Source: Nemertoderma westbladi (Eukaryota; Animalia; Xenacoelomorpha). Taken from it: DNA of 64,000 nucleotides. The notes below the pieces were generated by a model. The model did no database searches and was not told the DNA's origin. It worked only from the letters and a program-made list of their open reading frames with translations. Numbering within the stretch: the stretch's first letter is position 1; every line of letters begins with the position of its first letter. The DNA lies in the NCBI GenBank assembly GCA_032718475.1, contig JAUCBJ010007962.1, positions 1 to 64,000 of the forward strand. The letters run 5' to 3'. Positions 8,520-32,452 of the stretch are shown one piece after another. The position numbers and the translations under genes were made by a program.

Positions 8520-8660
8520 TAAACCTGAACCGGTACTTCTGTAGGTCAGTAGGCCCAACTGCCAGAACCGGTACTGCCGTAGGTCCGTAGGTCCAACTGC
8601 CAGAACCGGTACTTCTGTAGGTCCGTAGGCCCAACTGTCCTAACCGGTACTTCCAGTATA
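8520..8660 (+). repeat. ~37-bp tandem repeat in the leader of B
   Basis: AACCGGTACTTCTGTAGGTCCGTAGGCCCAACTGCCAG-like unit, 3-4 copies. Confidence 0.85.
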
Positions 8661-8882
8661 AGTACATTAGTATTATTCGATTTTGATTATTGTATACCGG
8701 TAGGTCTTAGTATTTAATCAGGGACTGCAGCCCTGGTTCTTTATTGAGATTTTACCTATTTCTGTCGGTTTTATTTACATGTAAGTTAATATTGAGCTGA
8801 AGACGTGTAAGTCTGCTCAGATTGTTCAGATAATTGTAGGCCGGACTGTTGTTAGATTGTTGTTGGGTTTGGAGAGATTACG

Positions 8883-9350
8883 GCGTGTGTAGAGTTTGTC
8901 CGATAGAGTGCCAGTTAGTAAGTTGGGGCAGCCATAGCTGTAAGGTCAATCCCCTCTTAAAGAATAAGTCGTACTACCGTGTTAGAACGCATACTAACTA
9001 ACCATTTTGGAATCTGCACATACTGTAGTTTATTTAGGCTTGACAGTATTCTGCCAACGTTTTGGCCTGTGTTTGTTTGTGTGGTCTGTTCAGGTACCGT
9101 AATAGTTATTACTCAGATATTTTGTAGGCTGGATTGTTGTCTAGCTATTATTAGGTCTGAAGAGATTGCTGCGTGTGTAGAGTTTGTCCGATAGAGTGCC
9201 AGTTAGTAAGTTGGGGCAGCCATAGCTGTAAGGTCAATCCCCTCTTAAAGAATAAGTCGTACTACCGTGTTAGAACGCATACTAACTAACCATTTTGGAA
9301 TCTACACATACTGTAGTTTATTTAGGCTTGGTGGTAGTCTGCCAGCGTTT
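8883..9350 (+). repeat. Direct duplication (~288-bp period) in the leader of B
   Basis: GCGTGTGTAGAGTTTGTCCGATAGAGTGCC... starts at ~8883 and ~9171. Confidence 0.9.
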
Positions 9351-10698
9351 GGTTTGTATTTTGTTTGAGTATTCTGTACGGGTAGCGTAATATTTATTAT
9401 TCAGAGTTTATGCGATTATTCGCAACATTCATGTCCCCAAGTTTATTCCTACAGTAATTGTGTTTGTTACACATACCGTTATAGTTAAATTAACCCCGGT
9501 ACTACACGAGCTGCTTGGCGTAGGAAAAGACTGGTGACTTTGTGCTTCGGTCACTCCAGCAGATGCCGTGGTTCTTTTAACTGTTCAAGTATATTTAACT
9601 ACTGATTATTTGTTGTACCAGTACTTGTACCTAATTTAGGGTTTAGTGTACAGTGCTTTCCGAGGTAATTAGTGTGTAGGCAGTATATTTGTGTTGTAAA
9701 GTGGTTAATAGGCACGCTGGATCTGGTAGTCCGCGGTAATTAACTTCTAGGTAGGAACACTCCGTGATACATAACGTAGTACCTATAGCGATACGGTTAT
9801 AGGTCGTCAGGCGGTGGTATTTTCCTATCTGGACAACGCAGTGTATTTACTACTACTTATTATTTTCAAATACCGTAGTACCCTGTCCGTTGTAATAACC
9901 AGAATTCTAACCCTTTGTTAGGCTGGTTTGTAGACTTCCTGTAAAATTACCCTAAAATTTCGTACGTAATATTTTTGTTGTGTTTAATTAGAGATTTAAT
10001 CTCACCCGTATCGTAAGTAATTTGTAGTATTAAGTAACTTAGGTAAATTAGAATTATCTGTTTTAGTGTCCCATAGGTAGCACTTCACTGAGAGCGCACA
10101 GCTTCTGTGTAGTGACTCCCCCAGAAATAATAACATTATTATTTCAAATATTGACAAAACCCCTTTTAAACGGGTATATATCTATTATAAATCAACTCAA
10201 ACGATTTATAAATAGTAGGCCTGCCATACAACAACTAGGTCTCAAAATCAGTTGGACTACTGCTTAAATAACGGTAACAAAGTAAGTTAAAGTAACCAAG
10301 TAACCCTAAAATATTCAGAAATTCAATTATTCTAAATTAATTGACATACCGGTATTTACCATAGGCTTCTTATATTTATTTCTATAAATTTGAGCTGAAA
10401 TCATACCGGTACTCTGTAATTAATTCTAGTCCATAATTATACTTATATATACTATCAGTGTAAGCTGTATACCGGTATTCACGATAGGCCTATTATATAT
10501 TTATATATATTTGTGCTAAAATTAGATACCGGTACTCTGTGACAAACCTAGTTTACAATACTTATATATACTATAAGTGTATACCGGTATTCTAATATAC
10601 TGTAATAAATTAACGGTACTAGGCCAACGGTCATACTGAATTACTAGACTTGCTTTAACTGAAACTATAGCAGTAGACATTCAACTGTATAGCTAAAC

Positions 10699-13600
10699 AT
10701 GTCTGACACTCAGCAAAACCTGTCAGACAGTCTAATCGATACAACCATCTGTGACACAGATAGGAGTGTGGAGCGATTAAGAAAGGAGTTCAGCTCACCT
10801 CCTACTGAAAGAAAGGTCATCCCTCCAGTAGTAGTATCAGACCCTAAGCTAATCCAACACCGTAGGTCTATCATCGGCACTCGGGCCCAAGTCAAACGGA
10901 ACCAGGAAGCAGCTGTCCCACAGCAGCAACAGCCTAGTCAAGAAACTTGTTCCCAGCGATCCGATAGCTCCAGTAGTTCGGATACTGTCGAGCTGACCCC
11001 CGAACGCGGATTGCAGATGGCGGCTACAGCCTACTCGGATCCCCTTCTCACCCTTCCTGCCGCAGTGCTAACTACTATATTGATTGCGGTGGAGGAACAT
11101 CAAGCTGATTGGGCGAGAAGTAAGCGAGCGACCCAAGATAATTATGCGGGATACGCCAGGGAAGAATTGATGTCTATTGTCGAGTCACAATGGAACTTTC
11201 CCGGACCCGGACTCCCGTTAGATTTGTCCGAGGCTACTTGGGAGGATATATACAGGATGGGAGTGACTAAAGATACAATGGACCCAGCTGTTTGGAAGAG
11301 GTCGGCAGCAGGATATGTGCAGGGATTCTTCGGCTCCTTGGAGCAATTGGAAGAACAACTGTTTCGACAACCCCTAGGACCTCAAGAGCAGGAAGAGCTG
11401 CTATATCAAGTACGCGAAAGAACCCTGCGCATTAGACTAATCCTATCAGCCTTTGAGGAAACTTCCAAAAGAAGACAGGACACGTCGCTGCAGGTTGCTG
11501 TCAAAACTTGGTTCCAGCGGGTAGGTCTCAAAGTACAAGAAACGGACCAGTGGAAATCCCAGCTGTCTGAGAGACTAACCTATGAAGAACCAACCGATGC
11601 CACCCTTTCTCAAGTGGAAGGCGAAGAGACCGCAGAGAGACCACGAACGAGAGACGCCATCGACATATATCTGTCCGACTATCAGCGATTCCTAGGAGAC
11701 GAAGAGTTGAGGAGACGGCTGTCTGGACTTTCCCCTAATAGTGAAGGAACCCAGCGTGTGTTAGACTCAATCGATGCTGAAATGTTAGCTGCTAACCAAG
11801 CTGAGTTTGATGAAAAACTCCGCCTCACTAGAGTCCAAGAAGAACTAGTAAAGAAAAAAAGGATAGAGGACCGAAAGGCAGCTGCAGTAACAGCGGCAAT
11901 GGCCGAAGTGGAAGCAGAAAGAAAGGCAGCGGCGGCAGAAGTAGAAGCAGAAAGAAAGGCAGCGGCGGCAGAAGTAGAAGCAGAAAGAAAGGCAGCGGCG
12001 GCAGAAGCAGAAGCAGAAAGAAAGGCAGCGGCGGCAGAAGCCGAAGCAGAAAGAAAAGCGACTGTGGCAGCAGCAAAGGCAGTGGCAGAAGCAGAACAGA
12101 GGGCGTCTGAAGAGACCACACAACTGGAGTTGGAAAATCTTCAAGAGACGCAAGATTGCATAAATAAACAGTTAACTGCTAGTCAAATGCAGATGAGGAG
12201 TCGATCTACTCCCAAACGCCAGGGATACACCTCATCAGAGGAAAGCGAAACCACCGATCCTGAAGGCGGAGGAAATAGATCTCGTCTAAGCAGGCGTAGA
12301 AAAACATCTCACCATCACAAATTGCCTGATTTGCCCCCAGCGGTTAGAAGACAACTAGCTAGCCCAGACTTAGGTAGTATAGAACCTACAGACCAAATTA
12401 TTAAGGTCAAAAGACTCCCTACAATAGTCGATGAGCCTGAAATAATTGGGCCTGTCGTTCCCAAAGCCACTACTGTGCTAGAGACCCCTGTACTTCCAGA
12501 GCTTAACTCTAAATTCCCTTTACACAGGACTACACTGCCTGTACCCGGTAGAACAGTCCATGAGAATATCCCTGTCCTGGAAGCTGAGAGAGAAATCAAA
12601 GATTTGTCTCCCGTCGTCCCGCGTCAGCCCGCTACAATGTTGGCGACTCCCGCTTCGGCGGTCGAGTGGGTAGAGGAGGGACGGCGGGGGATGAATCTCC
12701 TGCTCGGACAGATGCAGGAGACTGTCCACCAGCTTAAGGGAACAGTAAGGGAAGGTAGGGCAGAATTGCAAGAAGTGCAGCAAAGTATCGCACTGGAACG
12801 CGACAAATTAGTCAATATACAAAAGGGCATACCAATACCCCCTGTAACATTGTGTCAACCTGTTAGGTCTGAAGTATTACATGCGCAAGGTGTGGAGCCT
12901 ACATGCATCTATACTGCTAGTGAAGTGGAAACTCCTATAGCAAACCCTATTAAGGGTGATTATAGACCTGTTGTTAATGATATTCCCTATAGACCTGATA
13001 ATGATCCGAGAAATTTATATACCGATAATTCGATATTAAATAACACGATGGCCCAAGAAAGCTTTACGCGTCAGATGGCTAGAACAGAAGCCCGCCAAGC
13101 GGTCAAAGTGGGAGAGATCGTCAAATTCAATGGAGATGAGATGAAATGGTTACCTTTCAACGAATATTACAAAGACAGCATACAGAACTCTGTGCTATCT
13201 AACGGAGAGAAACTTAGGTTCCTCATCAAGTGCTTGGAAGGACCTCCCAAGTTAATGGCGTTAAAGTTTATTGGACATCCAGAAGGATTATGACAAGTTT
13301 GGGATACATTAAACATCAGGTATGGTAACAAGGATAACATAGCTAAGTATTTGTATGCAAAATTAGTAGCCCCCCGAAACTTCCTTAGTAGCGGTATTAT
13401 AGAGTTTTCCGATGAGATTCAGGAGATCTGTAGACAATTGGACTGGTTAGGTAAGTCTCATGAATATCAGAGTTCCATGGTTATTGGAGCAGTAGTCTCT
13501 ACTTTACCAAAGGGTGGAGTATGTACACGTTGGGACAAGAAAGTGTTGTATATGAATGAGCAGCAACGACGAAGCCCTACCATGGCTGATCTCATGTCCT

Positions 13601-15390
13601 TCTTAGATAGTGAAGTAAAATTACAACTCATAAAGCAGTCCAGAGAGAAAACATCGGAAAATAAGGTAAGTGAGAAACCCGTTTCTAGGAGAAGGATAAT
13701 ACCAGTGTGTTATACTGACGACGGCGAAAGCCAAGCTTCTCAAGAAGAGGACAGCGGGAAAGACACAGCAAAATCTTACTATGACAACAAGACCTATAAA
13801 GACGTAAGTAAATACAAGTCTCGAACCAGTGACAGGAGAGAACAGGTAACAACAACTCCTCCTACGTCTCCTAAGAGAATTTACGGAAGAAAGCCCGAAG
13901 AAAGAACGAGAGTGCATAACGTTACCCAAGGTAAGGTGAGTAACATCAAACCAAAATGTGCGCTGTGCGACGGGCCCCACCGTTTGAGTGCGTGTGCTGA
14001 ATTTCTGAAGAAATCCCTTGTAGACAGACGTACAGTCCTGTGGAATAAGCGGTTATGCTATAATTGCCTCAGATCAGGACACCAACGGCGAACCTGTTAC
14101 TCCGACGTAAAGTGTGCAAAGTGTGGCGCGAAACATCACATCTTGTTACACAGTGAGTTCGAACGAAACAACCCGAGTCAGGTAAGTGAGCCCGAACTAC
14201 ATGTCCAATTCAGTGATGTAAATGACACTGATCAAGAGTCTGAGATGGAAGGATTCTATACTGACGAATTCTCCGACGCCAACGAATCCTGTTACCTAAT
14301 AAATACCTCAGTGTATCGAGCACTTACTTATGAAAAGGACACCGACAATGAGTTCCCCCCAACTACTTTTGCCAGACAACCATCTTGGAAAGCTCCAACT
14401 TCCAATGTAGGAATCAGAGAATTTCCTGTAGTGCAGGTAAGAGTTCATGGTCCTAACAAAAGTTACATAGTGAACGCCCTCCTTGACTCCGGCAGCACAG
14501 GAAAATTCATCGATCAAGAACTAGCCGAAGATATCTTTGCTGGACAACCCAAATTCCGGACTAAATTGAATATGTCAGGAATTATGCAGGTTTGGAAATC
14601 TACCCTAACGGCAGACTACTATGTAGGTGTGTTGTCCACCCCCCAGGATAAATTAGGAGCACAAGGTATAAGGTCGGTAAAAATGGTGGCTATAAAGAAC
14701 TTCGCTACTACCCAAGCAGACCTTTATAATTGGGACGAGGATGAGAGCATCCAACATCTTAAGATACCTCGATTCCAGACAGATTATCCTGGAGTGCAAA
14801 TACTCATCGGCCAAAACGCGCATGAGGCGCTCGAGACATTGGAGAAACGGCCTACTCAACCGCAGCCACTACAAACCTATGCGGTAAGAACTAGAGTAGG
14901 TTGGTACTTCACTGGCCCTTCCCGTAGAACTCTCAAAGAGAGATTACCTCAACAACAGGTATACCAAGTAAAGGAATGGGAAGTGGAGAGCAGTGATGTG
15001 GACGATCCAACTGAGGGAACACCATACTCCTCAGATAATGACGATATTAACTCCAATGTAGATCAATGGAGACATTGTCTTGGGACGATTAATCCAGCCG
15101 ACATCGCTTCCAGAGGAGCAACTCCTCAAGAACTGATAGATAATCCAGGCTGGTTAGGTGGATCCTACTTCTTAAGTAAAGAAGAAGGAGAATGGCCTCC
15201 TCATCTTACCCCGGTGAAGATTAGACAGGCCAAGGGAGCGGAGAAAGTAACACAACAACTAAATCGCCCAGCTAGTCGTTTATGTTTACTGGAAAGAGAC
15301 CGAAAACTGTCCGGAAACTATGGAAGGCAAGATACTCTTCCTACGACCACTTCCCTAATCCGACAAATATCTAGGGACTCCATAACGTAA
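10699..15390 (+). pseudogene. gag-pol: Element B gag-protease fused in frame to RNase H tail and integrase C-terminal remnants; one in-frame TGA at 13291-13293
   Basis: DUF1759-like KFNGDEMKWLPF; three knuckles CALCDGPHRLSAC, CYNCLRSGHQRRTC, CAKCGAKHHILLH; protease ALLDSGS; QWRHCLGTINPADIASRG; NRPASRLCLLE; no YxDD and no DDE. Confidence 0.9.
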
Positions 15391-17021
15391 TAACATATGG
15401 AGTGGGCGTGTGACTATATCATTTTATATTTGTTTTTATTTTATATTTATGTATGTATTATTATGTAATTTTATTATAATCGTTTCCTTTAATTTTATTT
15501 AGTAGAATGTTATTTTAGTGATTATTTAGTAAATTAGTGCAATATATTAGTGTTTATTACGTACGTAATTACTTATAATATATATTTAGTGCGACGGCGA
15601 GAAAATAATTATTTTTCTATTTCCTTACTGTCCGTATCATATTATAAATAGGTGACTACAGTAAGATGAAATGTCCGTACTTATTAAAGTACAATAAAGC
15701 CACTACTATATTCAAGTATTATTGGTAGGCAGAGTATTAGGAATGCAAAGTTCAGATCCTCGTGTCTCGGCTAAACCAAGCTCTAGGTAGACCTTGGAAA
15801 CGACTTGCCTCTTCACACTGACATTGCTTCGTGCGATATTGCTCTTCTACCTTATATTAAATAATACATATAGTAGCGTGATGTCCCTATAACAGTAGCG
15901 TAAAACGCAAATAAATCTGTTAAACTTTTTGACCATCTGTAATTCTAGTCGATTAAGATATCGTGGCACCCACCGATATACTTGAAAGACAAATTCTAGA
16001 ATCAGTGGTTAACGTCCCCAGACAAGTTCTGGAATAAATCGGTGCCTATCTTAAATATTAATTTAATATTTATTAAAATCTGTAAAATTCAGATCCTTTA
16101 AAATTTCTAGTCAATTAAGATATCGCAGCACTTACCGATACTCTTAAAAGACAATTTTCATAGAATTAAGGATCCTATGTCCCCAGACCTGCTCTGGAAT
16201 CAAATTGTGTCAATTTTAACATCAAATAATAAAATTCACGGGAATAAATTTAAATTCATATTTTAAATGAATTTCATAAATTGTCATTTTGTGCAATTTA
16301 TAACATTCCCAAAATTCCATTAATTAATAGATCATGGGAGCGGAGATTCATCCTATTGAGTGTATTAGAGTGCGAGAATCTCCAACATATAGTCAATAGC
16401 CGATAAAATTAATAAAATCATGCATAAAGAGGATATTGACAATTAAAGAATTATTATTAAATAGCATCCCAGATCTGTATGCATGAGAATTACCCTAATT
16501 CTACCGCTAGCATTCCATAATGTCACCATAGCAACACCCACGCTAGAATCAGAAGCAAGTTAAGAGAACAATAGAAAGCTTGTCCCATTGCATAGCATAG
16601 AGAATACATAGCACACTGTTAGTATCCAAGGATACACAGTAATAACGTGACATTCTGGAATGCACTGACTAACGGACAAATGGCCTGTATGTGTACAATT
16701 GGTGACAGTTGTGTGGAATTTGTGCGTTTATAGGTGAATGTTACTGCTAAAGTATGTTTACAGTAGCTAGTCGCAATTGTGAAAGTAGCCCAACTCTCCT
16801 ATAGAAAGAACCTCAAGTGGATTCAAGCCTTTGGGACGGACAGTGGAGTGACTTGTGCCGGTTATCGTTGTCGTGCTGTTGCTACATGTTGGCGTAAATA
16901 CCGCGACGACAGTACATCGGCGCTGAGAATCCCACTGTCCGGGGGCAAAGAGAGGTAGGCAGCGACGCCCGCTCGCCTAAACATAAACTCATTACAATAT
17001 TAATAAACTCAGATAGCAGAT

Positions 17022-18470
17022 ATGACGGAGTTGATAGAAGATGATCTTGGTATCAGGGAGCGATATACTCTACCTTTACAAGCATTTGTGGATAGCTTGA
17101 TACGCGATGAAGCCGATCCAACCATTACGGAGGACGATGGTCGTTATATCGAACCGCCGATGTCCCAAGAGCAACTTACGCGTGAATTGGACTATCGAAA
17201 ATTCACCGCTCGCTATACGCATCGTAATGGTACATATATGGACTTCCTAACTACCGGCCATCCTATCGATTTACATGATACGGACGATGTAGACACCGAA
17301 AGGGAAATGGTTCTATTTAAATATCATACCCAGCGGAGTCGTAACGATAAACCGAAAATAGATCACGAAAATTCTATTCGTAACAGACTGGGAAGACGAA
17401 CCAATATGCCTAGAATCTGAGGAGATTCAGCCTATCGCGCCCGGAACAGCGACAACGATTACATCCTAGAATGGTATCAAGGTCCACAGTGTCTCACTGC
17501 GTACGATTATCGCCATGCCAACTATGTTTCTCGGCAACGTTGTCGGTTATGCGCATCGAGAGACCATGTTACGCCCATGGACACAAACGTCCGCTGTTCC
17601 TATTTCCACGAACAACCGGCGATGGAAATTTATTGCGCGTATTGCAGACTCAATAACTTGCACATTTTTGCGGTTTGCCCTCAATTTATGACTCAATGGC
17701 ACCATGGTCAACTAAAGGGACGCGCCAGTTTCGATTGCCCTTTTTAATCACGATTTGGAAAGCGTAGATGAAATGATCACACTACGTTACATCAGAGCTT
17801 GGGAAGCGAACGCTGATTTACATTGTGATTCGCGCCATCGTTATTATCCTGGACGCGCTTACGAAGGAGTTTATGCGTTCCATCCTTATCTATTCGCTTC
17901 TGTCGAACAGAAATCACGCATATCGAGTTACGAACTACTGAAGTGCGTCGGAGAATGTATTTCAACCAAGTTCGTACGCAAATTCTCAGGAGTGTTAATC
18001 CCAGCGACCTTCATTCCTATAGCTTAATCAATTATATCCGTCAGGACCCGGACTATGGAGACTTATTTGTTAACTCACACCCCGAGTTACAGGAAGTATA
18101 TCGACGGCCTTATGAATACCGAGCCTGCGAACGCGAGTTGGAAAGAACCATTAAACCCCGGAGGTTTCTAACTGCCTATGGTCCACCCACGGCTCTCGTT
18201 CAGACCACTCGTAAAGGACCCGTAAGAGCGGCTGTCTTGAAACGAGCTCTCAAAGCCGTTAGACCCCTCTCCCCCGACGTTGATGTCAATCAACCCGGTA
18301 CTTCGACTGGCGGATACACCGACCATAATCCTACACCCTCTGATGCAATCATATTGCACCCTTCACCCAGGAGTTATAGCCCTCCTTGTAAAGTGGCTCG
18401 CCCCAAAGAGAAAAGGACTCTGGCTAGCTTTAAAAAACTGCGTAAACGCCGTCCGCGCAAGAAAGACTAA
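17022..18470 (+). pseudogene. Extra 3' ORF of element B (triple Zn knuckle, WExxADxH domain, basic C-terminus), disrupted
   Basis: Reading through TGA at 17418-17420 gives CRLCASRDH..., CAYCRLNNLHIFAVC and a degenerate third knuckle; after a frameshift, RAWEANADLHCDSRHRYYPGRAYEGVYAFHP; ends KKLRKRRPRKKD. Confidence 0.75.
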
Positions 18471-18540
18471 CTGTTTAGAGTATTTACGTATATTAGAAAC
18501 TGTGATTTTGTATATTTTATAGACTCAAATCCCATTTTCT

Positions 18541-18548
18541 GGGAGCGG
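18541..18548 (+). promoter_or_regulatory. Polypurine tract of element B
   Basis: GGGAGCGG directly before the 3' LTR TGT. Confidence 0.8.
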
Positions 18549-19788
18549 TGTAAAAGCTTCTGTGGGATATAACTGGCCCCTTTGCTTCGCAATCCAGTTT
18601 CTCCCCAGGCGCTGGAATACTCTAAAAGGTTCTCTAACTGTATATATATTCCCCTCGCCCGCAAGGTACCATTACAGGTATTTTAACGGACATAAAAGTC
18701 ATTCTTCTATATACGTGCTTTGGCGGACATGGTAAGGCAAAAAACCCGCAATGCACCAAATGCCTTTACACGGCTTGGCCTTGATGATTCAGATTGCGAC
18801 ATCTAGCAGCTGGTTGCTGGCATGGAAACAGCCATTGGACGCATGGTTCTTTGTTTGGCTTGAGCCAATCAGAGCGATTTCTTCTGTCGACGTGTAGATA
18901 TTCGGCCGATGATACTAGGAGTGTTCAGTCTTACTGTTTTTGTGATACTGTTGTGTTCCTTCTATCTAGGCCAGGAACACCGGCTCTAGAGTCAATTCGT
19001 TTCAGACTTTAGAAGAAACATTAGTAGGCTTAAGATTATAGAGCATATAACTGTTATCAGTGCAACACGGCACATACATTGTCATATCATATCTTAACCT
19101 ACCGTCTTAATGCTGTTTACTGTTGTGTTTTGATTGAATATTATTTGGAGAACATTTATAAAGAACCCAAATTTCCCAATTTTCTTGATACACTACAGGT
19201 TAGAGAGATGGGTTATATATAGCGATTGCGACTTATATTATTGTGGTTTGTAGTGAATTTAATGCTATTTGATAAGCACTACATGAGTCCGTTGCTGTTC
19301 TCTTTATATATGATAAAATTCATTGACGGTCGGCAAATTAGTGAGCAGTATTATGTTTTACCGGTAGTGTGCATGATTGTGACTGATAACTAAGCATTTT
19401 CTAAAGAATGCGCCTCATACGTGAATCATAAGCCTTACCGACTTGCCGTTGTGATTAGTATAAGTCATATCTCTGTTTACCTAGATAGAGCGCCACGTCC
19501 TAAAGGAACTGTTAATATTTCCCGAAAGTGAATAATATTAGTCAGAAATTATTTATTAACGATCAATCGAATAATACAATAGGCTTACACTGCAATAATA
19601 ATCTAAGCCCTCAGAATCCAGTCTCCCGGGTATATCCAGCAGGTGAATGGACGCGCACTAGGCTGGCTTCTGCTAATGTTGTGTTTATTGGTATTAAATA
19701 TTTGTCAACTTCTAAAGTCTATTTATAAACCAAAAGACATATAAATTTTGGCATGTTAAACTGCTAAAGGTCTTCAAAAGCGCATACA
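18549..19788 (+). repeat. 3' LTR of element B
   Basis: Copy of 7222-8461, followed by TSD CATGG. Confidence 0.97.
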
Positions 19789-19793
19789 CATGG

Positions 19794-22700
19794 TGATCAC
19801 GCCGAAGTTTTGAAAAGCGTAATAAGACGTTTAAACATGCGTTACCGACAGAAATGGCGCAAATTAGAGAATAAGTTGGAAGGTCAAGGTAAAGTATTGA
19901 CACTTCAACACATTCATGACATGATAGCCATAGACGCATTAGCAGAGATGAAGTCAAACTTCTCAGAGGAGAATATGAGGGAGTCTAAGCCTGTTACTGG
20001 TAAGTCAATGGTAAGTTTTGACGATGACAGGACCACTGTGACTTTTAACTCAGTAGACAGATATGATTCGAGTACCCCAGCCTTTAGATCAGACTCGCGA
20101 GTATGGTCAGGTGAGCGGTTAGATAGACCTAGGTTAAAGCAACAGGAGTTGCCGGATGGATTTGTAGGTTGCCAATTCTGCTTGCTAAAAGAGGTAAGAT
20201 CTGATGACAATAAGTTGGACAGTTGCAGACGGTTTCAAAGAATTAAATTCGGAACAGAGAAGAGTTCAAGTGCGGACGTTGGACACCTGTTGGGCATGTC
20301 TTGCGCCAGGCCATGTACGGCGGCAGTGCCCGAACAGCAAGGATGGATGCATGGAATGCGGCAGACTACATCACAAGTTGCTACATGCGGATTTCCATAC
20401 CCCAACGGACCGTTACTTACAGAGAAATCCTCAAAGGAAGGGGAGCAAAGAACCCGTATCGATAAGAAGAAATACGTATACTGGCATCCAGGACGATGGT
20501 TATCAACCAGGTTCGTCGGACGAGGATGGCGAGGCGAGCGCGAGAGAAGTGACCTGCCAAGGTTTCACCGCGGATAGTTCATCGACCAGCGCACGGACGT
20601 ATTTATCATCGGCCACGTCGGAAATATTTAGCATGATTCCGGTGAAACTTACTGGGGATAAGGGATCGAAGAGAATATATGTGATGTTGGACACTGCGTC
20701 CACATTATCATATATCGACGAGGAAGTGGCGAGAGCCGTTTCTAGCTTCCAGGACGCCGAGGAAATCCAAATAGAGTTAAACTCCATGCACGGGGTAGGG
20801 GACCTCAAGGGACACAGAATTTCGGTAGAACTAGATTCCCTACTTCCGAGAGACCAACATACTCGACAAGAACGGAGAGCTTTGCCATTAGATGGATTCA
20901 AGTGTCTAGCTATGAAGGGGTTCGGCAGGCAGTTAGGTAAGGTGCCGCCGATGAGTCCCATAGCACAGGAGTATTTTGACAAGCTCAAAGTACCGAGACA
21001 CCAGGTAGGTTATAGGAATGTTTCTATGTTGATTGGTGCAGAACAGCTGATCGCACACCAAATATGGGAAACGAGACCAGCTGAGCCGCATGTCAATGGA
21101 CCACATGCCTATAGGACTATATTAGGTTGGTATACAAGAGTACCCATGTCTTATGAGTTTACAGGTGGCGACAAGCCAATAGATAGATAGGACGGATTAC
21201 AGCCTATAACTGAACCACCGTTAGTAGAACCACCAGACATAGACGAGTTTAGGAGAACCTGTATTGACCATTATAGTGACGTTAGCGAGTCGGACGAGGA
21301 GTTGATTCCCGATAATGTTAGGTTGTCGGAACCACTTCATAACGACCGGACAGATAGTGAACCCGAGGACTACTGTTATCAGACCCGTGGGTCTGGTTCA
21401 GCGGCCCACGCTACCTATTTGAGTAACATTTTGACTTATACCGACATAGTGGAGGGTCAAGTGGCTAAATATCGAGACCTCGACATTTTCCAATACAGTG
21501 AGGAGGAATTGCAGAAGGAATTGATACGCCAGGACCTCGAGACAGGAGCTAGAACCGTCGAAAGGCTGGATAGGGACGCAATGGAACCCGGTGGGTATGA
21601 CCTAACCATGTCCACTGATGAGAAACGGTCGCTGGAGATGATGGAAGATACCATACGTCTGCTACCGACAGGACATTTTGAAGTTGGAATGTTGTGGCGT
21701 CGACAACCACCTAAGTTGGAGAACAACTACAGCTTAGCCTTGAAAAGATTGGACGGAGTAAGGGCTCGGTTGTTAAGGAATCCAGACATTAGGGAGAAGT
21801 GTTGCGCCCAGATCAACAACTATTTCGCCAAGGGATTTGCTGGGAAGGTAGAGGACCCTGACTTAGTGACAGACCAGACATATTACCTCCCACACCACTA
21901 TATGACTCACCCTGACAAACCTGATAAAGTCCGAGTGGTCAACGACTGCGCAGCAGTTTACAGAGGTATGTCCCTGAATTCAGAGTTGATGGATGGACCC
22001 AACCTGAATAACTATTTGATCGGAATACTGTTACGTTTTAGACAGCGGCGATTCGCGTTTACTTGCGACATCGAGGCGATGTTCCACCAGGTAAGAGCCT
22101 GTAAGGCAGACCAGGATAGCCTTCGATTTCTCTGGTTCGAGAATGAAGACTTATCCGGCCCGGTGGTTACATACCAGATGTACGTTAGGATATTTGGTGC
22201 CCGCGATAGTCCGAATGGCACGCTGTTTGTTCTAAAGAAAACGGCAACAGCCCAGATTGGTAAGTATCCAGTAGAGGTGATCGAGTCTATATTGAGAAAC
22301 TTCTATATGGACGACGGATTGGTGTCCAAGGACACGGCAGAACAAGCCATAGAAGTGGCTCACGGCCTACAGGAGTGCTTGGCTACAGGGGGTTTTCCTC
22401 TAACCAAGTTCACTACAAACTCGGAGGCTCTATTAGAGTCGTTCCCGGTGAAAGATCACGGGAGCGGAGACATAGAATTGGGGGTAGAACCCATCCCCAT
22501 GGCGCGAGTACTGGGACTCGCTTGGAACCCGAACACGGACAAGTTCCAGGTAAGAGTTAGATTTGAGCCCAGTAGTCCAGACAAAGTTTTGACAAAGAGA
22601 ATTTGCTTATCGACATTAAGTAGACTATTTGACCCGATGAACTTTATCAGTCCGGTAATATTACAGGCACGAGCGTGCATGAGGAAAATTTGGTTGTCCG

Positions 22701-25271
22701 ACTTAGAGTGGGACGAACCAATATCTCCTATACATGCAAAGCAGTGGAGAGAGTGGGAAGTCGAGTTGCATCTATTGAAAAATATAGATGTACCCTGTTC
22801 CTACTTTCCGAATCAGCTGGTATTCCCAGCTGATCTCGAACTCCATTTATTTAGTGACGCAAGTGACACCGGCTTTGGTATGGTAGCCTACCTTCGCCGA
22901 GAGGTAAGTCAGGATAAGTTTGAGACGGCTTTTGTGACTTCTACATCAAAGACAATGCCGGTCAAATACATGACTGTCCCTCATGCAGAGTTACAGGCGG
23001 CAGTAGTTTCAGTCGAGGTAAGTAAGCAGATAACAAAGGAGTTAGACACGACATTGACCTTATTCTATTGGACGGACGCATCCTTAGTGTTAGTATACAT
23101 TGCAGCTGACAATATTGCACTAAAGACATTTGTGGCCAACAGACGCGCTCAGATCGTCGACTTTTCGACGAAGGAACAATGGAGACATTGTCCGGGAGTG
23201 TTGAACCCGGCCGACATAACTTCGAGAGGTGCAATGCCAGCGGAATTCTGTCAGGAAGAGTCTCAGGAGTTTTGGTTGCATGGACCTGATTTTCTGATGA
23301 GGACACAGGAACATTGGCCAGAGTGACTGAAGATAGTGACCAATCCGATGCCCGAAGATGCAGAAGTCAAAGTGGAGAAAGTCTCTAAGTCAAAGTCTAA
23401 AGCCAAACTCAAGTCATTGGAGCAGCCTGAAGAGTCATTGGAGCAGCCTGAAGAGTCATTGGAGTGGCCCGGAGACCTGTCAGACCTACAGACTTACGTG
23501 ACTACTAGGTCCGGAAGGGTAAGTTATGACATAAAACCACCCTTACAGACTAAACCAGAGTCACAGTTGGTAAGTGACGGACAGAAAATGACCGACACAA
23601 TGGAGCCTTTGGTTTCCAAACCTGCGGGTTTGGATTCGAAACTTCCATTAGTTAGCGGACAACCGTCGCTGGCATTAGAGTCATGCAGTGTTTATGACAA
23701 ATTACTAAATTCGTCTGCCTCTTGGCTGACAATTTGTAAAAGAACTGCGTGGTTAAGCCGATACGTTTCGTACCTTTGTTTAAAACATTTGAAACATTTA
23801 GGAGAACAATTGAGCACTAATATTGAGCGAATTCGGAAATTGAAACAACCTCTGACAGAGGATGAGATTGATCAAGCGGAATTAAAGCATTTGAAGTACT
23901 ATAAAATGTGTGCCTTCCCAAAAGAATTCTATCTATTGTTGGCTCAACAACCAGTTCTCTCCTTAGAAAATGGAGTCCATTAATCCATAAGGGTTTGATT
24001 TGTCATAGATCAAGAATCCAGACTGTCGACATAAACTCACAGTTTAGGTTCCCAGTGATAATCCCTAGTCACCCAATAGAATTGCAAAGAGCGATTCTAT
24101 GGGATATACACAAGAGGTTGCATCACGCGGGAAAGTTACACTGTTTGTCGACAGCGAGACAGCGATTCATTCTATTGCAGCCAAGCAGGGCAGTAGGCAC
24201 TATGTACGATGCCTGTCTGGTTTGCAAGAGGGTGAACGCCAGAGTATTGGAACAGGAGATGGCTGAACTCCCGGAAGCGAGAGTGCAGGCATATGACCCA
24301 CCTTTTACAAATACAGGGGTGGATTGTTTTGGTCCGATTGAGGCAAAGAGTGGATGGCTGACCCACAAGCGATGGGGCCTGCTACTGACATGCATGGCTA
24401 GTAGAGCCATACATATCGAGCGTGTGGCAGACATGTCGACCAAATCTCTGCTCCTGGCCTTAAAGAGATTTATGGCCAGGAGAGGACTAGTACAGGCGTT
24501 TTACTCTGACAAGGGTACAAACTTTGTCGGAGGGAATAGCGAGTTAAATGCGGCTCACAAAGCAGCGCAGAATAAAGAAATTTCTGCAGCACTTTTGCCG
24601 CAAAGAATAGAGTGGAGATTTAATACTCCAGAAAGTCCTTGGAGAGGAGGAAGTTGGGAGCGTTTGGTTCGCTCTGTAAAGCAGGCTATTGCCAAGACGT
24701 TGCCTGTGAACAAACAACTTACCAACGATGAACTGGTCATAGCTTTCATCGAAATCGAGCATACCCTAAACTCGAGGCCGATAGCTATGTTGCCAGACGG
24801 TGTTGCATTAACGCCGAATCATTTGCTAATGCAGAGTCCAGCATTTCTTCTGCCGGCATCAGAACCCATTAGTGCCGACCTATATAGTCGTAAGAGCTGG
24901 AAAGTAACACAATTTTAGCGTACACATTCTGGGAATATTGGCGGGAATATTATCTTCCCACCATATCCACCAGAACAAAGTGGTACAAAACGGTTCGGAG
25001 CCTCCAAAGAGGAGACTACGTATTGATAACCGAACCGATTATCAAGAGAAAATATTGGGAGACGGGAGTTATCTTGCACATACACCCAGGCGTGCAAAAC
25101 ATAGTGCGCACAGTCACTGTGAAAATTAGGTGCAAGTGTCCGCACCCAAAGAAGTGTAAAACTAATGGTTTGCACACCTTGGACCGACCGGTCCAAGATA
25201 TCGTGTTATTAGAGGAGACACGCATCGAGACGGGAGATTATAATTTGTCTCCTGCCTCAAAACAGAATTAG
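19794..25271 (+). pseudogene. pol: Element A gag C-terminus (Zn knuckles) and pol: protease, RT, RNase H, integrase; several stops and frameshifts
   Basis: CWACLAPGHVRRQC; VMLDTAS; YYLPHH, DIEAMFHQV, RNFYMDD; LFSDAS; HHCC and DDE integrase motifs; DUF5641-like tail DRPVQDIVLLE. Confidence 0.95.
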
Positions 25272-26025: not shown

Positions 26026-29000
26026 ATGGAGAAGGGAATTAGAGCCCAACCGCGGAGAGGATTTACCGCTAGAGAGGAGGCGGAGCTACCATTTGCCCAA
26101 CCGGGATGTAAAGATTCGAACGTTTACTACCACGGGAGGTCGGTAATGGAGCTAAATGGGAAGTATAAACCCTCATATGATAAGGAATTAAGGAGGGAAA
26201 GAATGAGAGCGTTGGGGGACCGTATGGAAGTTTTGCGGAAGGAGTATCGCACTCGGTATCCTTACGATTTTGCGTTAGACGTATGTGACATTAGTGCAGA
26301 CCCGGACGAGGAGATTGCGCGGCTGTACCATATGAACATGTATTTTCGACACGACGAACCTCTACCTGCAGTCCGAGATCAGTTCGACGGAATGCATCTT
26401 TACCGGAGGACTCGAGGCGAGGATCAAGAGACGCCGAAGATCTTCAGTATGTACAAGTTGTTCTATAAATTTGGTGAATGCATGAACAAACAAGACGTGG
26501 CGATTCCCGACCGACTGGACGAGCAACATCCTGAACCGATATTAACGCGATGTCAAGCTCACCAGTTCCTTAGATACAACGAGGGAGGTTACCCAATGAG
26601 CAACCCGATGATTAGTATCGACTTTAGCGGAAAGCAACCTCCAAGACCCATTACGCCGACCGTTACGACATTAGATCCATATACAGAGATTAAACCCTGT
26701 TCGACACCCAGTTTGATAGAGATGGCAGCGGCCATTTCGCTATACCGAGCCTACAAGGATGTAGAGGCGCGGCGCGAAGCGGCACGGGACTCGGGTACCA
26801 AACCCGCGGGTTTGGAGCTCTCGAGTCCCTGGACTACGTTTACTTCGCCTCACTGAGCGAGAAGCCTCACGCCTGAGCATCAGGACGACATAGACGCATT
26901 GCGGCAGGAGGAGTGAGCGGCGAAGGCGAAACAGTTATTCGAAGAGCGGGTGGCGGAGTATAATAAGACCGCGGATAGACATCAGGAGGAGACTAGGAGA
27001 GTGACTGGATTTGTTCCACAGGCCGTATCTCAACCCCGACCGGTGTATTATTCCGACGGCAACGAACCTGCGATATTGGTAGATCACCCGGAGTCGCGAG
27101 AAGCGATTAGATTCTTGCCGATGGTAAGGATGTTGGATCATTGGAACGTCGACTGTCTACGGGAAGTTTTATGCGCGAAGTTCTTGCGTGTTCCCGATGC
27201 AGATCACAGATTACGACACAATGGATTAGATTGGAGCTCCGGGGAAGGAGAGTAAATTATTCGGATGGTTGGATAAGTACATCAAGGTATGGGTCGCGGT
27301 GGCTACATTCCCAGACGACGAGGAGGTAGACCAGACGTGGCTGAGGAGGAAGGGTTCTTACACCTGATATGATGACCACAAGGCTATCGAGCGCATGTGG
27401 ACCCCATCAGACGAGATTCAGCATCAGTGGAGGAAAACGGAGGAATCACTGCAGGATTGGAGGGTGATGTTCTACGACAATGAAGGAGGGTCTCATCAAG
27501 AATGCTTGACTAGTAAGTGCATTCAAATTCGCGCGGCCGATGGTGTGACTCATGTGTTTATGCGCGTAAGGGCGGATCGAGAGAAACCGGAGCCCATAAT
27601 AACGACACAATATCGGAAAGGGAAGGATCCTAGGGAACAGATTTTGGAGGTATGCAGGCGAGGAGGTATGCACGGAGCGGAGCGTATCGACGCCAGGATG
27701 CTACCCAAGAAGGTTAGAGAGGCTATTCTTAACCAAGATTACGTCAAGGTGGGATCGGGAGTCCAGAGTGATTTAGAGAGTGACTTCAACGCCATGACTG
27801 ATTTGGAAGATAGATTGCCGATACCGTTTGTCGACACCAAGCTATTGTTGCTATGGGCACAGGATATTGGAATTTATAGGGAGTATCCCAACTCTGCCAA
27901 GACTGGTATGGGCTTCATAGCGCATTTGTTGTATAATTGGGACTTTAAGTTGAAGACGCAGAAGAAGTACGAGGAGGTGTATGGCGAATACAACATGCCA
28001 CCGGGAGCGGAGTTCAAATCCCACTTCAAGCGGCAAGCGTTAGTGTATTGGAACATTTGCGCGCGACCCCGTGCGTCACTACAATATTATTTGGTGCTTG
28101 AGTCGAACACGGTAACTTGTTTATTAGCGGATATCGTTGCGCGAGTTTTGAAGCGTCATCCATTGGTGTTTGGAGGAGATCAATACGTTCGCTCGAAAGG
28201 AGGAATCCAATCCGACGTGATGAAGCGTTTCTTAACCCCGTTCTTCAACCAATCGTTAGAGAATACGTCGATGGTTAGGAGAGGATTAGCGATATTCGAA
28301 GGAATATATCGACAGAACATCGGAGATTTGGGAGACCGACCGTCAATGGAATATCCGACGCCAGAGGCTTTGGAGAACTGGTTCGGGAATCAAACCCGCG
28401 GGTTTGGTACTCCCTTCCACTCGGAGGCTGATAGACCTATTAGAGAGGGTTGGCCGGAAACGTTAGTAGAGGTGTTTGGAGTGGATCTTCCGGTGGAGAA
28501 GACATATCCGAAACGAACGCGGGAGGAAATATTGGAGATAGAGGACAAGGGCGAGGATGTTTACGTTGTTCCGGATCGACAACCTTTGACCGGAGAGGAC
28601 GACATCGTATTAGACATTGGGAAAGAAGGAAGTGCGAAACCGATTGGAGACCTCATATATGAGAGGGCCTGGTTTCCGCAAGCGCGTAGGTGCAAGTTGT
28701 GCAGCAGCACAAGGCACAATCAAAAGTTATGTGACGCGGTAGTAGAGGCGGCGCATAAGGTCTGCCGTTGGTGCAATGAGACCGACCATTCGTTTCATAC
28801 GTGCACCGACTTCATTTCTCAATGTGGATATTGTGGAGTAAAGGGACATCGTAGCGCGAGATGCCAAATGCGAGATGATTCCTTTCAAAACCATAGCGCT
28901 AACCTACTTCGGGAGATGCTAGATAAGTGGGAAGGTGTGGCCGACTACCACATCCAAGCACAGATGCGTTGGTTACGATTTAAGAGGGGATATGGATTTT

Positions 29001-29710
29001 GGGCAGTAGACCCATCACACGTTGCGTATGAGCCGTATCTGCAGTCGTTACCACAATATCAAGAGCTCATCCTGACCGCTCAAGACCTTCCACAGAACAC
29101 TGGAGTCATCGTTGTTCGGGAATACTTCAGACAATTGAACATGGATAACAAATACACTTGGAACTTTGTTGCTATTTGCAACCGTATTACAAAGGGTGTA
29201 TTTTCGGAAACTAGAAAGGTGGTGCGCGCGAGAGGAGATTGGAGGATGGCGGCTATACAATACCGCAACGAGTTCCTATTGACTCACGTACCGGTGGGGT
29301 CATTGACCGCTAAGAGGATCGAGGAACAGAGAACCGCAGCGCCCACAGCGACGACTGTTGGAGCTCAAAGCTCACGGAAGGAACCAGGAGGAGAGGTCCA
29401 AGACAAGCGTCAAGTCAAGGACGACCACTACCATTCGATTATAGAAGCACAGGGAGCGTTGGAGAAGGCGCGGGTGCAACTGCAGAAGGAGGAGTTGGCG
29501 GAAGCGACCACAGGAGCACGATTGGGACGAGGCCGAGGGAGAAGTACGAGCCGGGAATCTGTCGGGGCTCAGGGAACATCGTCACCGGTTCCAGGGAGTG
29601 ACGCCTCGCGGACAACATCAACAGAGTCGACTACTGGAGGAAGATTGGTGTATCTGGGAAGGGGGCGGAAGAGAGGAGCGAGCCCAAAGAACCCAGGAGC
29701 GGGTCGGTAA
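26026..29710 (+). pseudogene. Large extra 3' ORF of element A (~1200 codons; triple CCHC knuckle, WExxADxH domain, RG-rich tail), disrupted in the 5' third
   Basis: ORF pieces 25993-26856 and 26950-27255 (same frame) plus 27395-29710; CKLCSSTRHNQKLC, CRWCNETDHSFHTC, CGYCGVKGHRSARC, KWEGVADYH...GYGFWAVDP. Confidence 0.8.
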
Positions 29711-30225
29711 TGCATTCATATCATGGGGCGACAGACTCTAGATATATACATCATCGTCGCTCTGATGTATATTGTAGCATTTTCGTAAATATCCGACCGG
29801 ACTCATATACTAGTCGTAACAATTTGAATTTATATTATGAGAGAGGCGAAGGAGGTGATTGGGGAGACAAACCTGCCCTAGCCTTTCACCTACCACCTTT
29901 CACCTTTCACCCACCCTAGCAAGTTTTATAAAAGAGAAGGTATTTTTGTAAATTTAATTTGTATGTAGTAATCATTATGTAGAACGAATGAGAAACGATA
30001 TTTTGTAAATTTAATTTGTATGTAATAATTAAACAGTGAGAGAGATAATATTTTGTAAATTTGATTTATTTGAAAACCCATTATGCAATATCTATGCAAT
30101 ATTTGTAAATAGTAGAATTATTATAGCATCAAGATATTTAGATTATTTGGAAGTGAATTTATTTTGTTTGTATACATCGCCTATACTCTTCTACAATTGG
30201 AGGGAAACATTGCATGATTTCCCTT

Positions 30226-30232
30226 GGAGCGG
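30226..30232 (+). promoter_or_regulatory. Polypurine tract of element A
   Basis: GGAGCGG directly before TGTTAC; same core as the PPT of B. Confidence 0.75.
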
Positions 30233-32452
30233 TGTTACGGTATATTATGGCGCTGTACTTACATTAGTCCGCATTATACAGTATAATAATATTAGTCCGT
30301 TATACAGTATAATATATTAGCCATTATGCAGTATAATATATTAGTCGTTATGCAATATAGTTATTTAGATAAGACATAATAATGCGCAATGACATTTAGA
30401 TAAGGAAAATGAAACGCCCATATATTTTGAATTCATCCATTTTGTATAGTATGTAGCCCTACCTATGTAATTTTGTATTAGGATATAAGTAGATAGTTCC
30501 AGGGTAGCAAGTTCCTGTTGGACCCTGGATGTGGGCTTGCTGTTATTAGCCTTGATGGGCTAGCTATTGGTTTTAATTTTCTCTATAATTGCGCTAAATT
30601 AACTTTTGTGCATCGTATTAATAGTACCGCTAAATTAAGCACCGGCAAATTTACCTTATATGGTGACGATTTGAGGGTTTCGGGAGCAATAGGTTCACGA
30701 TCCGGCTTTCTTATTGGCCTAACTGCTTCCAGGTTGGTCTAATGCTAGCTCGGATTGGGGAGCCAATGAGAGAGCGATTGCATAATCCCTCATGAACCAC
30801 CTATAAATTGGCCGTGTTTCCGGTAAATGTAATCATCTTTGTTGTACACTATGTGCTTTGTAATTAATCTCAGTGCTTTCTTTATAATTCTGCATTTCTA
30901 CCTCTTTTCGATTTTTTCTTACGATGATTCGCTAATTTGACTATTTCTGCTTGTGTTTCTCAATCAACCTCAATGATTACTATAAATTACAATTGGAACT
31001 ATGATTTCTACCCTTTAGTAAATGGTTCTATGTGATTCTTTTCGACACAATAATCCTACGGGATTCCTTAGACTGTCAGACTGTTTGGTAATTTGAATGC
31101 GCCACTACGGTACCTATTCATTCTGATGGAGAGCTAAGTTACCGGTAAGCGCGGCGGGCGCATCGGGGGGTTAGCGACGAAGGGAGTGTGGAGGATTCAA
31201 GGGCGGGCAGTGCTGGCGAGAGCACTATTGCGGCTAGAAGTTCGCGGTATAGAGGAACCCAGGTTCGCCGGAACGGTAACTAGGGGGCTGATAATCCAGA
31301 TTTTGTCTCTATTTGTAGTATTAGGGGGGCAGGAATTGGGTTAGTTAGGAAGCTCCAGATGTATCCGGGAGAGACCTGCGTGCCTTACAATCGTGAGCTA
31401 AACTGTAAACTATTGTTTGTTGAATCGTGAGCTAAACTGTAAACTATTGTTTGTTGAAACGTGAGCTAAACTGTAAACTATTGTTTGTTGAATCGTGAGC
31501 TAAACTGTAAACTATTGCTTGTTACGCTGATTGGTGTGTTACTAAAGTGTGCCTAATAAATCACGAATGCTTAGATAGGTGCTCTTTTCCCTTTGATTGA
31601 TTTCTATTTCTTAGTTTATGACGAATAGTTACTGATTAGGTCGAAAAATAATACAGTATTTTAGGCTCTTACTGGTGCTACCAGTTGTGCGATAAATTAG
31701 AATTGCGCATTCTGGAATACTTAGTAATTAGTACGCTGTACATATTTGTGACTGTAATTAACTAGTAAAATTAAGAATTTTGTACGCAGCATAGCGGAGA
31801 GTAGTTAAGGTAGGATTTGGAGTACCGTAACTATTCATGCAGGGCGGTTATTTGAATTAGAGGACGATAAGTTACATTGTAGTATACAGTATTTAGCGCG
31901 CATTAGTAAATTGCTGGCCTAAAGCCAGCCGCAGGTAAGTCTAGTCCCACTACAGGTATTAGCCGTAATAAAACAGTCCCGATTTTGATTACTTAAATAT
32001 TCTCACATTCACACATTCCGTTAGGGAATCCCAGTCTTTGCGATTAGATGCGATTAGATCAGATTAGATTAGAAAAGACATAATTGTTCACGTGTTTAGC
32101 AGTAAATTAGGCCATAGGAATACACTCAGAGTGCAAGTCTCTCGCACTCGTTTTAAGTAGCTTAGGGAACCGATTTCGGGTTTATTGTTTTGGTTATTCC
32201 CGCTTGGCTCATATATTCGAACAGTTAGCTCTCTATCGAGTAATTGGTAGAGAAAGGAACAAGAAATTAGCAGGAGCTGTATAAAATTAGTAAATATATC
32301 AGCGGACGGCAGATTAGCGCCATCCAACGGTAAGTAGCAGCGGTTTTGGATTTAGCAACCCTACATTACAAATAATACGCTCCTGATTGCCCTGCTTAAT
32401 AAATAGAGCAATTTGTGTCTTTATTGGTTGGGTCGGGGTAGTTTGTTTAACA
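30233..32452 (+). repeat. 3' LTR of element A (2220 bp)
   Basis: TGTTA...TAACA termini; has one more 33-bp unit and a ~150-bp segment (~31835-31985) missing from the 5' LTR. Confidence 0.93.

Follow-up and report, generated by a model that had tools for sequence, protein, structure and literature searches.

The locus described here raises what is still an open question for LTR retrotransposons, namely what third genes other than Env do for the elements that carry them. The window, a stretch of 64,000 nucleotides from Nemertoderma westbladi, contains a large element, A, and a second element nested inside it, B, each with an extra open reading frame. For that of A, a preliminary description had proposed a nucleic-acid-binding accessory protein, such as a chaperone or export factor. 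We do find a selected, non-Env, likely nucleic-acid-binding BEL/Pao gene, but because it contains a 3'-5' exonuclease-type domain, the reading shifts from chaperone or export factor to likely nuclease or pseudo-nuclease. Our answer is a tentative one, which we rate at somewhat less than an even chance: the extra ORF may be a BEL/Pao third gene that encodes a DEDDy exonuclease with zinc knuckles and trims the 3' ends of the element's own RNA.

The carrier itself is readily placed. Element A has a DUF1759 gag, a reverse transcriptase and RNase H of Pao type, an integrase with DUF5641, and TG...CA LTRs. Its pol region matches Peptidase_A17 (E 1.3e-36), Integrase_H2C2 and DUF5641, and has 36-41% identity to BEL/Pao polyproteins, of which those with a name come from marine invertebrates. 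In a reverse transcriptase tree (75 rows, loci with at least 400 aligned residues), the branch bearing A is long and no relative lies near it, so we give A no clade name. In element B we found no reverse transcriptase or integrase match. None of 80 related loci has a match to the extra ORF of A; long ORFs 3' of pol in such loci were considered and rejected: some were gag genes belonging to adjacent copies, some were different genes of host or mobile origin, the rest had no assignment, and none matched A's ORF.

Table 1. Features of elements A and B, with positions in the window.
Feature	Position	Strand	Remarks
5' LTR of A	1..1845	+	starts before window; repeats 30416-32452; 27 mismatches/1,842 aligned bases, 1.5%
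Candidate self-primer in LTR of A	964..974	+	exact reverse complement of 1846-1856; second copy 31378
Non-tRNA primer-binding site of A	1846..1856	+	directly after LTR; lacks TGG; 11-bp complement in own LTR
gag of A, 5' part	3141..7221	+	broken, split by B; DUF1759 6264-7103, E 1.4e-7
Element B, nested in gag of A	7222..19788	+	1,240-bp LTRs, CATGG target duplication, BEL-type gag
Non-tRNA primer-binding site of B	8462..8472	+	complementary to 7720-7730, own LTR
Extra ORF of B	17022..18470	+	broken, shorter; knuckles, WEANADLH block, basic tail
Rest of gag and pol of A	19789..25271	+	stops and frame changes; protease region, RT, RNase H, integrase
Extra ORF of A, N-terminal ~450 codons	26026..27367	+	all breaks located here; no Pfam, NCBIfam, PHROGs or PDB match
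Predicted DEDDy-type 3'-5' exonuclease domain	27470..28165	+	homolog-only profile; joint profile leads to EXD2
Three tandem CCHC zinc knuckles	28691..28864	+	strict C-x2-C-x4-H-x4-C
Conserved post-knuckle block WE..AD.H...GF	28865..29100	+	by eye common to all seven homologs and B
Low-complexity basic tail and stop codon	29340..29710	+	
Polypurine-tract position of A	30222..30233	+	end GGAGCGG, same in B
3' LTR of A	30234..32452	+	2,219 bp; TGTTA...TAACA

The extra gene of A runs in sense from an ATG at 26026 to a stop codon at 29708-29710 (+ strand), starting 754 nt past the pol stop and ending 523 nt short of the 3' LTR. The sense coding region of about 1,200 codons that had been described between pol and the polypurine tract is present, but not as a single open frame, as stops at 26854, 26914 and 27365 and one frame change (between about 27190 and 27260) break the window copy. 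Its longest open piece is 780 codons, versus a maximum of 255 in 2,000 base shuffles. At the stops at 26914 and 27365 other copies differ from the window (among 40 of 419 rows listed), and in two contigs that span the frame change the length difference from the window preserves a single frame. The tail is basic, as had been stated, and rich in glycine, serine and arginine, but with one RGRG and one RGG it is only modestly RG-rich. By a strict pattern, no convincing splice acceptor was found 5' of the ORF; a donor-like splice site occurs at 1726, inside the LTR of A.

Searches with the window protein by itself gave little. Pfam, NCBIfam and PHROGs returned nothing useful, and no exonuclease match came from Pfam and PDB. 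Word-indexed homolog searches gave no match for residues 1-780, or for residues 380-650 among shorter proteins; an Atlas search with residues 500-650 gave none either. Pattern scans across metagenome and viral contigs did not find the ORF, and scans for three of its homologs found no locus. Two single-sequence structure predictions (mean pLDDT 34.3) were unusable. A search of 1.84 billion representatives nevertheless recovered seven distant homologs, with E from 7e-8 to 6e-4. Their layout is shared: a linker joins a DEDDy-type 3'-5' exonuclease to CCHC knuckles, and a small conserved domain follows. Profiles built from the homologs only find the window protein among 10,840 segments, with E 2e-16 over 27698-28165 for the exonuclease and E 3e-18 for knuckles plus block, scores that are not independent because the homologs were picked by their likeness to that protein. 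Against PDB, the joint exonuclease alignment matches EXD2 (E 2.9e-5) and WRN (E 0.048 and 0.15); PF01612 matches one of the seven homologs (E 0.039), and Atlas gave PF01612 plus zf-CCHC (0.84) as a lead only. Taken together, the comparisons suggest that the protein very probably has an exonuclease-plus-knuckle architecture. The N-terminal part of about 800 residues, previously called unrecognised, remains so over its first 450 or so residues, which by profile comparison are not common to the homologs, but not over 27470-28165.

Candidate catalytic residues are encoded at 27476 and 27482 (ExoI D/E), 27770 (ExoII D), and 28088 and 28100 (ExoIII Y..E). The homologs retain ExoI DxE in 5/7, ExoII VGS...D in 6/7 and ExoIII Y...D in 4/7, with Y...E, as in A, in 1/7. 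For ExoII, the aspartate D135 of A does not vary in alignment A3 and lines up with EXD2. ExoIII reads Y241-x3-E245, with E replacing D, and homolog P0124 has the same change; in homolog P0122 most of the exonuclease motifs are lost. For ExoI, the register that keeps D37 and E39 scores best (1.5 versus -11.7), and the hairpin that follows has EXD2-like spacing by eye; this register requires an insertion of about 30 residues, and 165 of 1,000 shuffles reach 1.5. MAFFT sets a stretch free of acidic residues at ExoI, and hmmsearch gives no ExoI alignment. We lean slightly towards a predicted exonuclease that is catalytically active.

All three knuckles that had been reported have the strict pattern (beginning at 28691, 28763 and 28823), and residue shuffles contained one strict motif in 12 of 100,000 cases and two in none. 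The WEGVADYH..GYGFWAVDP block was likewise confirmed in A's extra ORF; the post-knuckle block by itself is weak, scoring E 2.4 against a profile of the homologs only that had one mis-cut row out of seven. A cold-shock RNP1 motif within GYGFW was considered and rejected, having no support in Pfam or PDB. The knuckle piece of B scores 74 against A, a value reached by 0 of 2,000 shuffles and the best of 2,821 real segments, and its WE piece scores 49 (7 of 2,000 shuffles, second of 2,821 real segments); the exonuclease profile found nothing in the extra ORF of B. Across the other copies of A's family (453, 399 and 208 contigs aligned over 501 bases), the knuckle region is under purifying selection: 28 of 30 polymorphic sites are synonymous, versus 9.9 expected (0 of 20,000 random draws), and the 5 variant sites within knuckle ligand codons are all synonymous. 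This estimate covers 28660-29160, with the exonuclease domain lying outside it. The 21 near-fixed differences of the window copy that were classified (synonymous 2/5 and 2/16) match the decay expected of that copy.

The same element offers a candidate substrate. In both A and B the complement to the primer site is exact, 11 bp long and at offset 0; 3 of 20,000 LTR shuffles of A and 23 of 20,000 of B hold an 11-bp complement. The Tf1 primer is 11 bases long. In A, an AATAAA at 1107, 143 nt downstream of 964, is compatible with an R region. The predicted self-priming loops are about 880 nt in A and 740 nt in B, and the pairing probability of the complement in the folded RNA is 0.65 in A and 0.02 in B. 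Self-priming has been defined by an LTR complement of at least 10 bp to a site lying 0-5 bp past the 5' LTR (PMC6317226), and both A and B have such a complement. Judged from sequence, A likely primes its copying with a stretch of its own RNA and not with a host tRNA. The co-occurrence of extra ORF and non-tRNA primer site that the preliminary description raised holds within the window, in A and B both; the link is not obligatory, since the 11-base signature also occurs at locus L014, where only 161 nt separate pol from the 3' LTR.

The primer site speaks for priming that is independent of tRNA, and so supplies a concrete candidate substrate within the same element. We speculate that the CCHC knuckles would grip single-stranded RNA while the exonuclease trims 3' ends of the element's own RNA. 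The transcript's 5' end would fold onto the primer site, cleavage would release this folded end as a primer, and the exonuclease would then remove the unpaired 3' overhang as far as the 11-bp duplex, so that reverse transcriptase is given a matched end. Element B, with neither a reverse transcriptase nor an exonuclease match, might borrow both in trans. We infer RNA as the substrate, and hold it to be the element's own with a confidence that falls a little short of even; the self-primer specifically is the substrate we favour, and one that is by itself unlikely to be right. Further out, and decidedly improbable, is the possibility that a giant self-priming BEL/Pao lineage supplies a primer-maturation enzyme of its own, with an exonuclease-knuckle protein trimming the self-primer to the exact 11-bp duplex, also in trans for RT-less partners such as B, and that in other animals this retroelement gene is represented by the seven orphan homologs.

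Other readings of the gene need to be weighed against trimming of the element's own RNA. It might be, though we think it rather unlikely, that the exonuclease fold is dead and that the protein serves as an adaptor, binding element RNA to escort, export or protect it, as with CERV of Cer1, or EXD1 and Maelstrom, which lack catalysis. The non-significant ExoI register, the altered ExoIII, the motif losses in P0122, and the fact that B retains only knuckles, block and basic tail are all consistent with this. So is CERV, a non-Env ORF at the same position that is required for genomic RNA export (as described in PMC10309623), and inactive DEDD derivatives are described as retaining RNA binding (PMC5408684). 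But DxE is kept in five and the ExoII aspartate in six of the seven homologs, in A the register with the top score retains D37 and E39, with EXD2-like spacing to the next hairpin (by eye), and the CERV finger is a C4 one, not CCHC knuckles (PMC10309623). An active nuclease could instead serve counter-defence, trimming or destroying host piRNA or siRNA, or stripping oligo(U) tails from element RNA. TbRND, which has the same domain order, is reported to bind U-tails via its knuckles and to lower guide-RNA levels (PMC7797062); the family has many copies, as counted above, and the gene is confined to A's lineage (0/80 related loci), as expected of a conflict gene. Selection in the tested region is strongly purifying, not diversifying, and the resemblance to TbRND is limited to the knuckles. 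We consider this reading unlikely.

That the nuclease acts on DNA, polishing cDNA ends or proofreading for reverse transcriptase and so permitting an unusually large element, is a less probable option still. The closest solved domains are those of EXD2 and WRN, single-stranded DNA is named as a possible substrate of DEDDy enzymes (PMC5408684), and A is about 20 kb long without B, versus a published 4.2-10 kb (PMC3118150); the CCHC knuckles, however, point to single-stranded RNA, and the family copies are diverse. An Env that has diverged, a second gag that arose by duplication, or a neutrally drifting gene captured from the host would fit the Env position, the three knuckles like those of BEL Gag and the broken copy. 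This reading is largely refuted and we regard it as extremely improbable: no clear Env, gag (DUF1759 included) or named host match emerged from the profile and homolog searches, the knuckle spacing is unlike that in Gag of A and B, and evolution across copies is not neutral in 28660-29160, where 28/30 sites are synonymous. By Kyte-Doolittle hydropathy, a proxy for membrane segments, the highest 19-residue values are 1.34 and 0.84, in keeping with the earlier statement that no signal peptide or transmembrane run is evident, and the search for viral fusogen homology gave only non-significant rotavirus VP4 matches (E 0.08-0.7). As the window copy is open over its exonuclease and knuckle domains, activity and substrate are directly assayable. 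The case also shows that knuckle-bearing "hypothetical" metagenome proteins can be retroelement accessory genes of this sort.

How does the gene compare with known systems? Among solved structures, EXD2 (PDB 6K17) and WRN (PDB 2FBT) are the best matches of the exonuclease alignment, at profile level only, and both are cellular proteins without A's knuckle array. In Trypanosoma brucei RNase D (TbRND; PDB 7C42, 7C45), too, tandem CCHC knuckles come after a 3'-5' exonuclease domain, and they are reported to increase RNA binding and cleavage; it is, however, an enzyme of the host whose knuckles number four and whose linker has 28 residues (PMC7797062), versus three knuckles and about 175 residues in A. 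An exonuclease-only profile matches EXD2 and WRN in PDB, not 7C42 or 7C45; because the TbRND profile match runs through the knuckles only, we take it as shared architecture that does not imply orthology. CERV of C. elegans Cer1 has a Gypsy carrier, a C4 finger where A's protein has CCHC knuckles, H/M/G domains and a G-protein-like domain, and no exonuclease in its published description (PMC10309623). In its priming, A resembles the self-primers Tf1/Sushi, Tcn1, Tj1 and copia TAR, whose primer site adjoins the 5' LTR and complements an LTR stretch, but these are described as Ty3/gypsy or Ty1/copia elements (PMC6317226, PMC4600332), whereas A is BEL/Pao. The exonuclease-type domain links the extra ORF to a kind already known from bdelloid rotifer LTR retrotransposons, the DEDDy-exonuclease ORF3 of Juno, Vesta and the Terminons (Rodriguez et al. 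2017, PMC5408684), for which that account gives no demonstrated activity or role. Likened by description, A's gene joins this kind, being non-Env, carried by an LTR retrotransposon, DEDDy-type and free of a membrane segment, and a Cys-His-Cys zinc motif is noted for Vesta2 and Vesta5. It differs in its three CCHC knuckles, the conserved extra block, an N-terminal extension of about 450 residues, and a motif that would read D-E-D-E (ExoII in A being D) where rotifer ORF3 has DEED; variation in the rotifer ORF3s is described as mostly neutral, in contrast to the purifying selection in A's family (PMC5408684). To the rotifer genes, the present one adds a BEL/Pao carrier, measured purifying selection, a seven-member exonuclease-plus-knuckle family and a candidate substrate.

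The extra gene that element A, a BEL/Pao LTR retrotransposon, carries at the env position likely encodes, judging from its sequence, a DEDDy-type exonuclease with CCHC zinc knuckles. The preliminary description had noted three tandem knuckles, a WEGVADYH block and a basic tail, and had seen no transmembrane-type segment; all of this is borne out, the last by the absence of a hydrophobic run. Most searches with the ORF came back blank (Pfam, NCBIfam, PHROGs, PDB, word-indexed homologs, and metagenome and viral contig patterns). An exhaustive search of 1.84 billion representatives returned seven matches (E 7e-8 to 6e-4; 514-727 residues), one labelled 'hypothetical protein' and the others without a name, from clusters of one or two members and contigs of 2.5-13 kb. 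All have an N-terminal domain that a variable linker joins to CCHC knuckles, followed by an FE..AD.G..T.R...GFF block; the N-terminal domain carries DEDDy motifs: DxE in five of the seven, VGS...D in six and Y...D in four. The exonuclease motifs are degenerate in one homolog, P0122, where the knuckle-plus-block module follows twice in tandem, and another, P0123, starts downstream of the first motif. Profiles built only from the seven, which had been picked by their likeness to the window protein (the product of A's gene), recover it at E 2e-16 and 3e-18 among 10,840 segments. An alignment of the exonuclease domain (the window protein and six homologs, P0122 excluded) matches EXD2 in the PDB at E 2.9e-5 and WRN weakly; through its knuckles, the full alignment also matches Lin28, retroviral nucleocapsids and entries 7C45/7C42, which are Trypanosoma brucei RNase D (TbRND). 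An Atlas lead on the window protein gave the same family pair, PF01612 plus zf-CCHC. The block after the knuckles is a weak match by itself, and the first ~450 residues have zero matches in Pfam, PDB and homolog-profile searches.

The gene is functional at the family level, even though this copy is not intact. The ~1200-codon ORF described between pol and the polypurine tract stands as a coding region, but here it is interrupted by three stops and a frame change near 27190-27260, leaving a longest open piece of 780 codons; pol carries breaks of the same kind. We compared other copies using contigs from three DNA runs (two samples) that together span the entire region. At least two of the three stops are replaced in other copies (among 40 of 419 variants listed), the net length of two contigs across the frame change preserves one frame, and one common variant is shorter in the N-terminal part by a multiple of three bases. 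The preliminary description had proposed checking selection across copies, and in 28660-29160, the knuckles and following block only, evolution is not neutral. With 40 of 47 variant sites listed, 28 of the 30 that are polymorphic among other copies (share below 0.98 in run X2) are synonymous, against 9.9 expected if the same base changes fell at random (0 of 20,000 draws), for a rough pN/pS of 0.035. Near-fixed differences, taken as this copy's own line, are synonymous in 4 of 10 cases vs 2.7 expected, and shifted-frame controls lack the synonymous excess.

Coordinates of the extra gene, the self-primer pairs and other features
Feature	Position	Strand	Remarks
Extra gene of A	ATG 26026 to 29710	+	stops at 26854, 26914, 27365 in this copy
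Segment skipped in common variant	26172-26501		net multiple of three bases; present in 3/3 DNA runs
Block after knuckles	28865-29100
Self-primer pair, A	1846-1856 vs 964-974	+	exact 11-base complement
Self-primer pair, B	8462-8472 vs 7720-7730	+	exact 11-base complement
Pairing segments, related locus L014	L014:327-337 with L014:6918-6928		locus without extra ORF
Leader of A	1846-2340		primer-site core repeated at 1876, 1917, 1975, 2007; stacked hairpins on folding
Stretch within gag of A	5428-6264		no open frame; perhaps another insertion
Element B	7222-19788		long gag; protease-like motif (by eye); LTRs 0.8% apart, young
Tandem duplication, 2 kb	32235-36170		covers A's 3' LTR end plus part of the neighbouring element; tandem arrays of 44 and 52 bases; genuine or an assembly artefact
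Third, decayed BEL/Pao element	36040-43000	-	no extra ORF after pol; 5' LTR not found
AT-rich satellite	57300-64000		higher-order structure; units ~450-500 and 1,200-1,550 bases

Domain search places A in BEL/Pao by its gene order (DUF1759 gag, Peptidase_A17, integrase, DUF5641). Over 1,842 aligned bases its two LTRs show 27 differences, and in the RT region its identity to the best 120 of 848 matches is 36-41%, the named ones being from marine invertebrates; in an RT tree of 75 rows, with loci under 400 aligned residues left out, A sits on a long branch with close relatives absent. Without the nested element B it measures ~20 kb with 2.2-kb LTRs, larger than the ranges in PMC3118150 (4.2-10 kb; LTRs 0.2-1.2 kb). 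B, a second BEL-type element, lies in the gag of A, with LTRs 99.2% identical and a CATGG target duplication; the domain search found no RT or integrase match in it, and it is likely a non-autonomous partner. Its polypurine tract ends GGAGCGG, as does that of A. At the position equivalent to A's extra gene, B has an ORF that is shorter and broken. Ranked by match to A among 2,821 real segments, which include Gag knuckles, its knuckle piece comes first, and the piece after it comes second for the WE block; with profiles the two give E 0.0086 and 0.03. An exonuclease profile search detected no exonuclease in B. The homology of the two ORFs is modest yet collinear.

Both elements lack TGG directly after the 5' LTR, and in each the first 11 bases there match, in exact reverse complement, an 11-mer within its own LTR. 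Chance controls gave 17 and 21 of 20,790 cases with unrelated 11-mers, and 3 (A) and 23 (B) of 20,000 LTR shuffles. By the published criterion of PMC6317226, A and B carry a putative self-priming signature; predicted pairing of primer site with LTR site is 0.65 in A and 0.02 in B. The two signatures are unrelated in sequence and alike in geometry, in two different BEL/Pao elements, and three hairpins immediately follow the LTR of B. Eighty related BEL/Pao loci, the top-ranking ones of 547 confirmed in a quarter of the collection, give no match to the extra ORF at E <1. From pol stop to polypurine tract and LTR start they span 28-520 nt (43 delimited of 56 integrase-end loci), vs 4,962 nt in A. 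With the 5' LTR end delimited in 12, one (L014) has a perfect 11-base self-primer, one 9 bases and ten at most 6; 18 further regions include a 10-base complement in two, both of one family. Self-primer-like complements occur in L014, L018, L026 and L028, all without the extra ORF; in several other loci, the bases that follow the LTR show no TGG and no perfect complement. The co-occurrence of extra ORF and non-tRNA primer site put forward earlier thus holds for A and B but not for L014, which means that the signature does not always require the gene.

Beyond architecture, selection and complementarity, the mechanism is one that we infer. The ExoII aspartate of the window protein is clear and its ExoIII reads Y...E; ExoI is uncertain, for the top-scoring register, FYDNEG, has EXD2-like spacing by eye but a score without significance (reached by 165 of 1,000 shuffles), and MAFFT instead puts an acid-free stretch there. 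We predict a likely active exonuclease; that the protein is a catalytically dead RNA adaptor seems unlikely. The knuckles of TbRND hold its exonuclease on single-stranded RNA (PMC7797062), and by analogy those of the window protein would do the same. The exonuclease might then trim the ends of the element's own RNA, a reading we hold tentatively, and the substrate we favour, itself doubtful, is the element's self-primer. A nuclease for counter-defence is rather unlikely too, and one acting on DNA ends or in proofreading is improbable.

As far as the portions available of PMC13524379, PMC554778 and PMC3118150 show, the extra genes described in BEL/Pao elements resemble Env, and the literature searched on non-Env ORFs and self-priming in BEL/Pao, which took in few subscription journals, yielded neither. 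DEDDy ORF3s, the third genes of LTR elements such as Juno and Vesta, have already been published for bdelloid rotifers (PMC5408684). The extra gene of A is a real, selected accessory gene and a variant of this kind; what is new relative to the rotifer ORF3s is its BEL/Pao carrier, its triple knuckle, its long N-terminus without matches, and the self-priming signature of the element that houses it.
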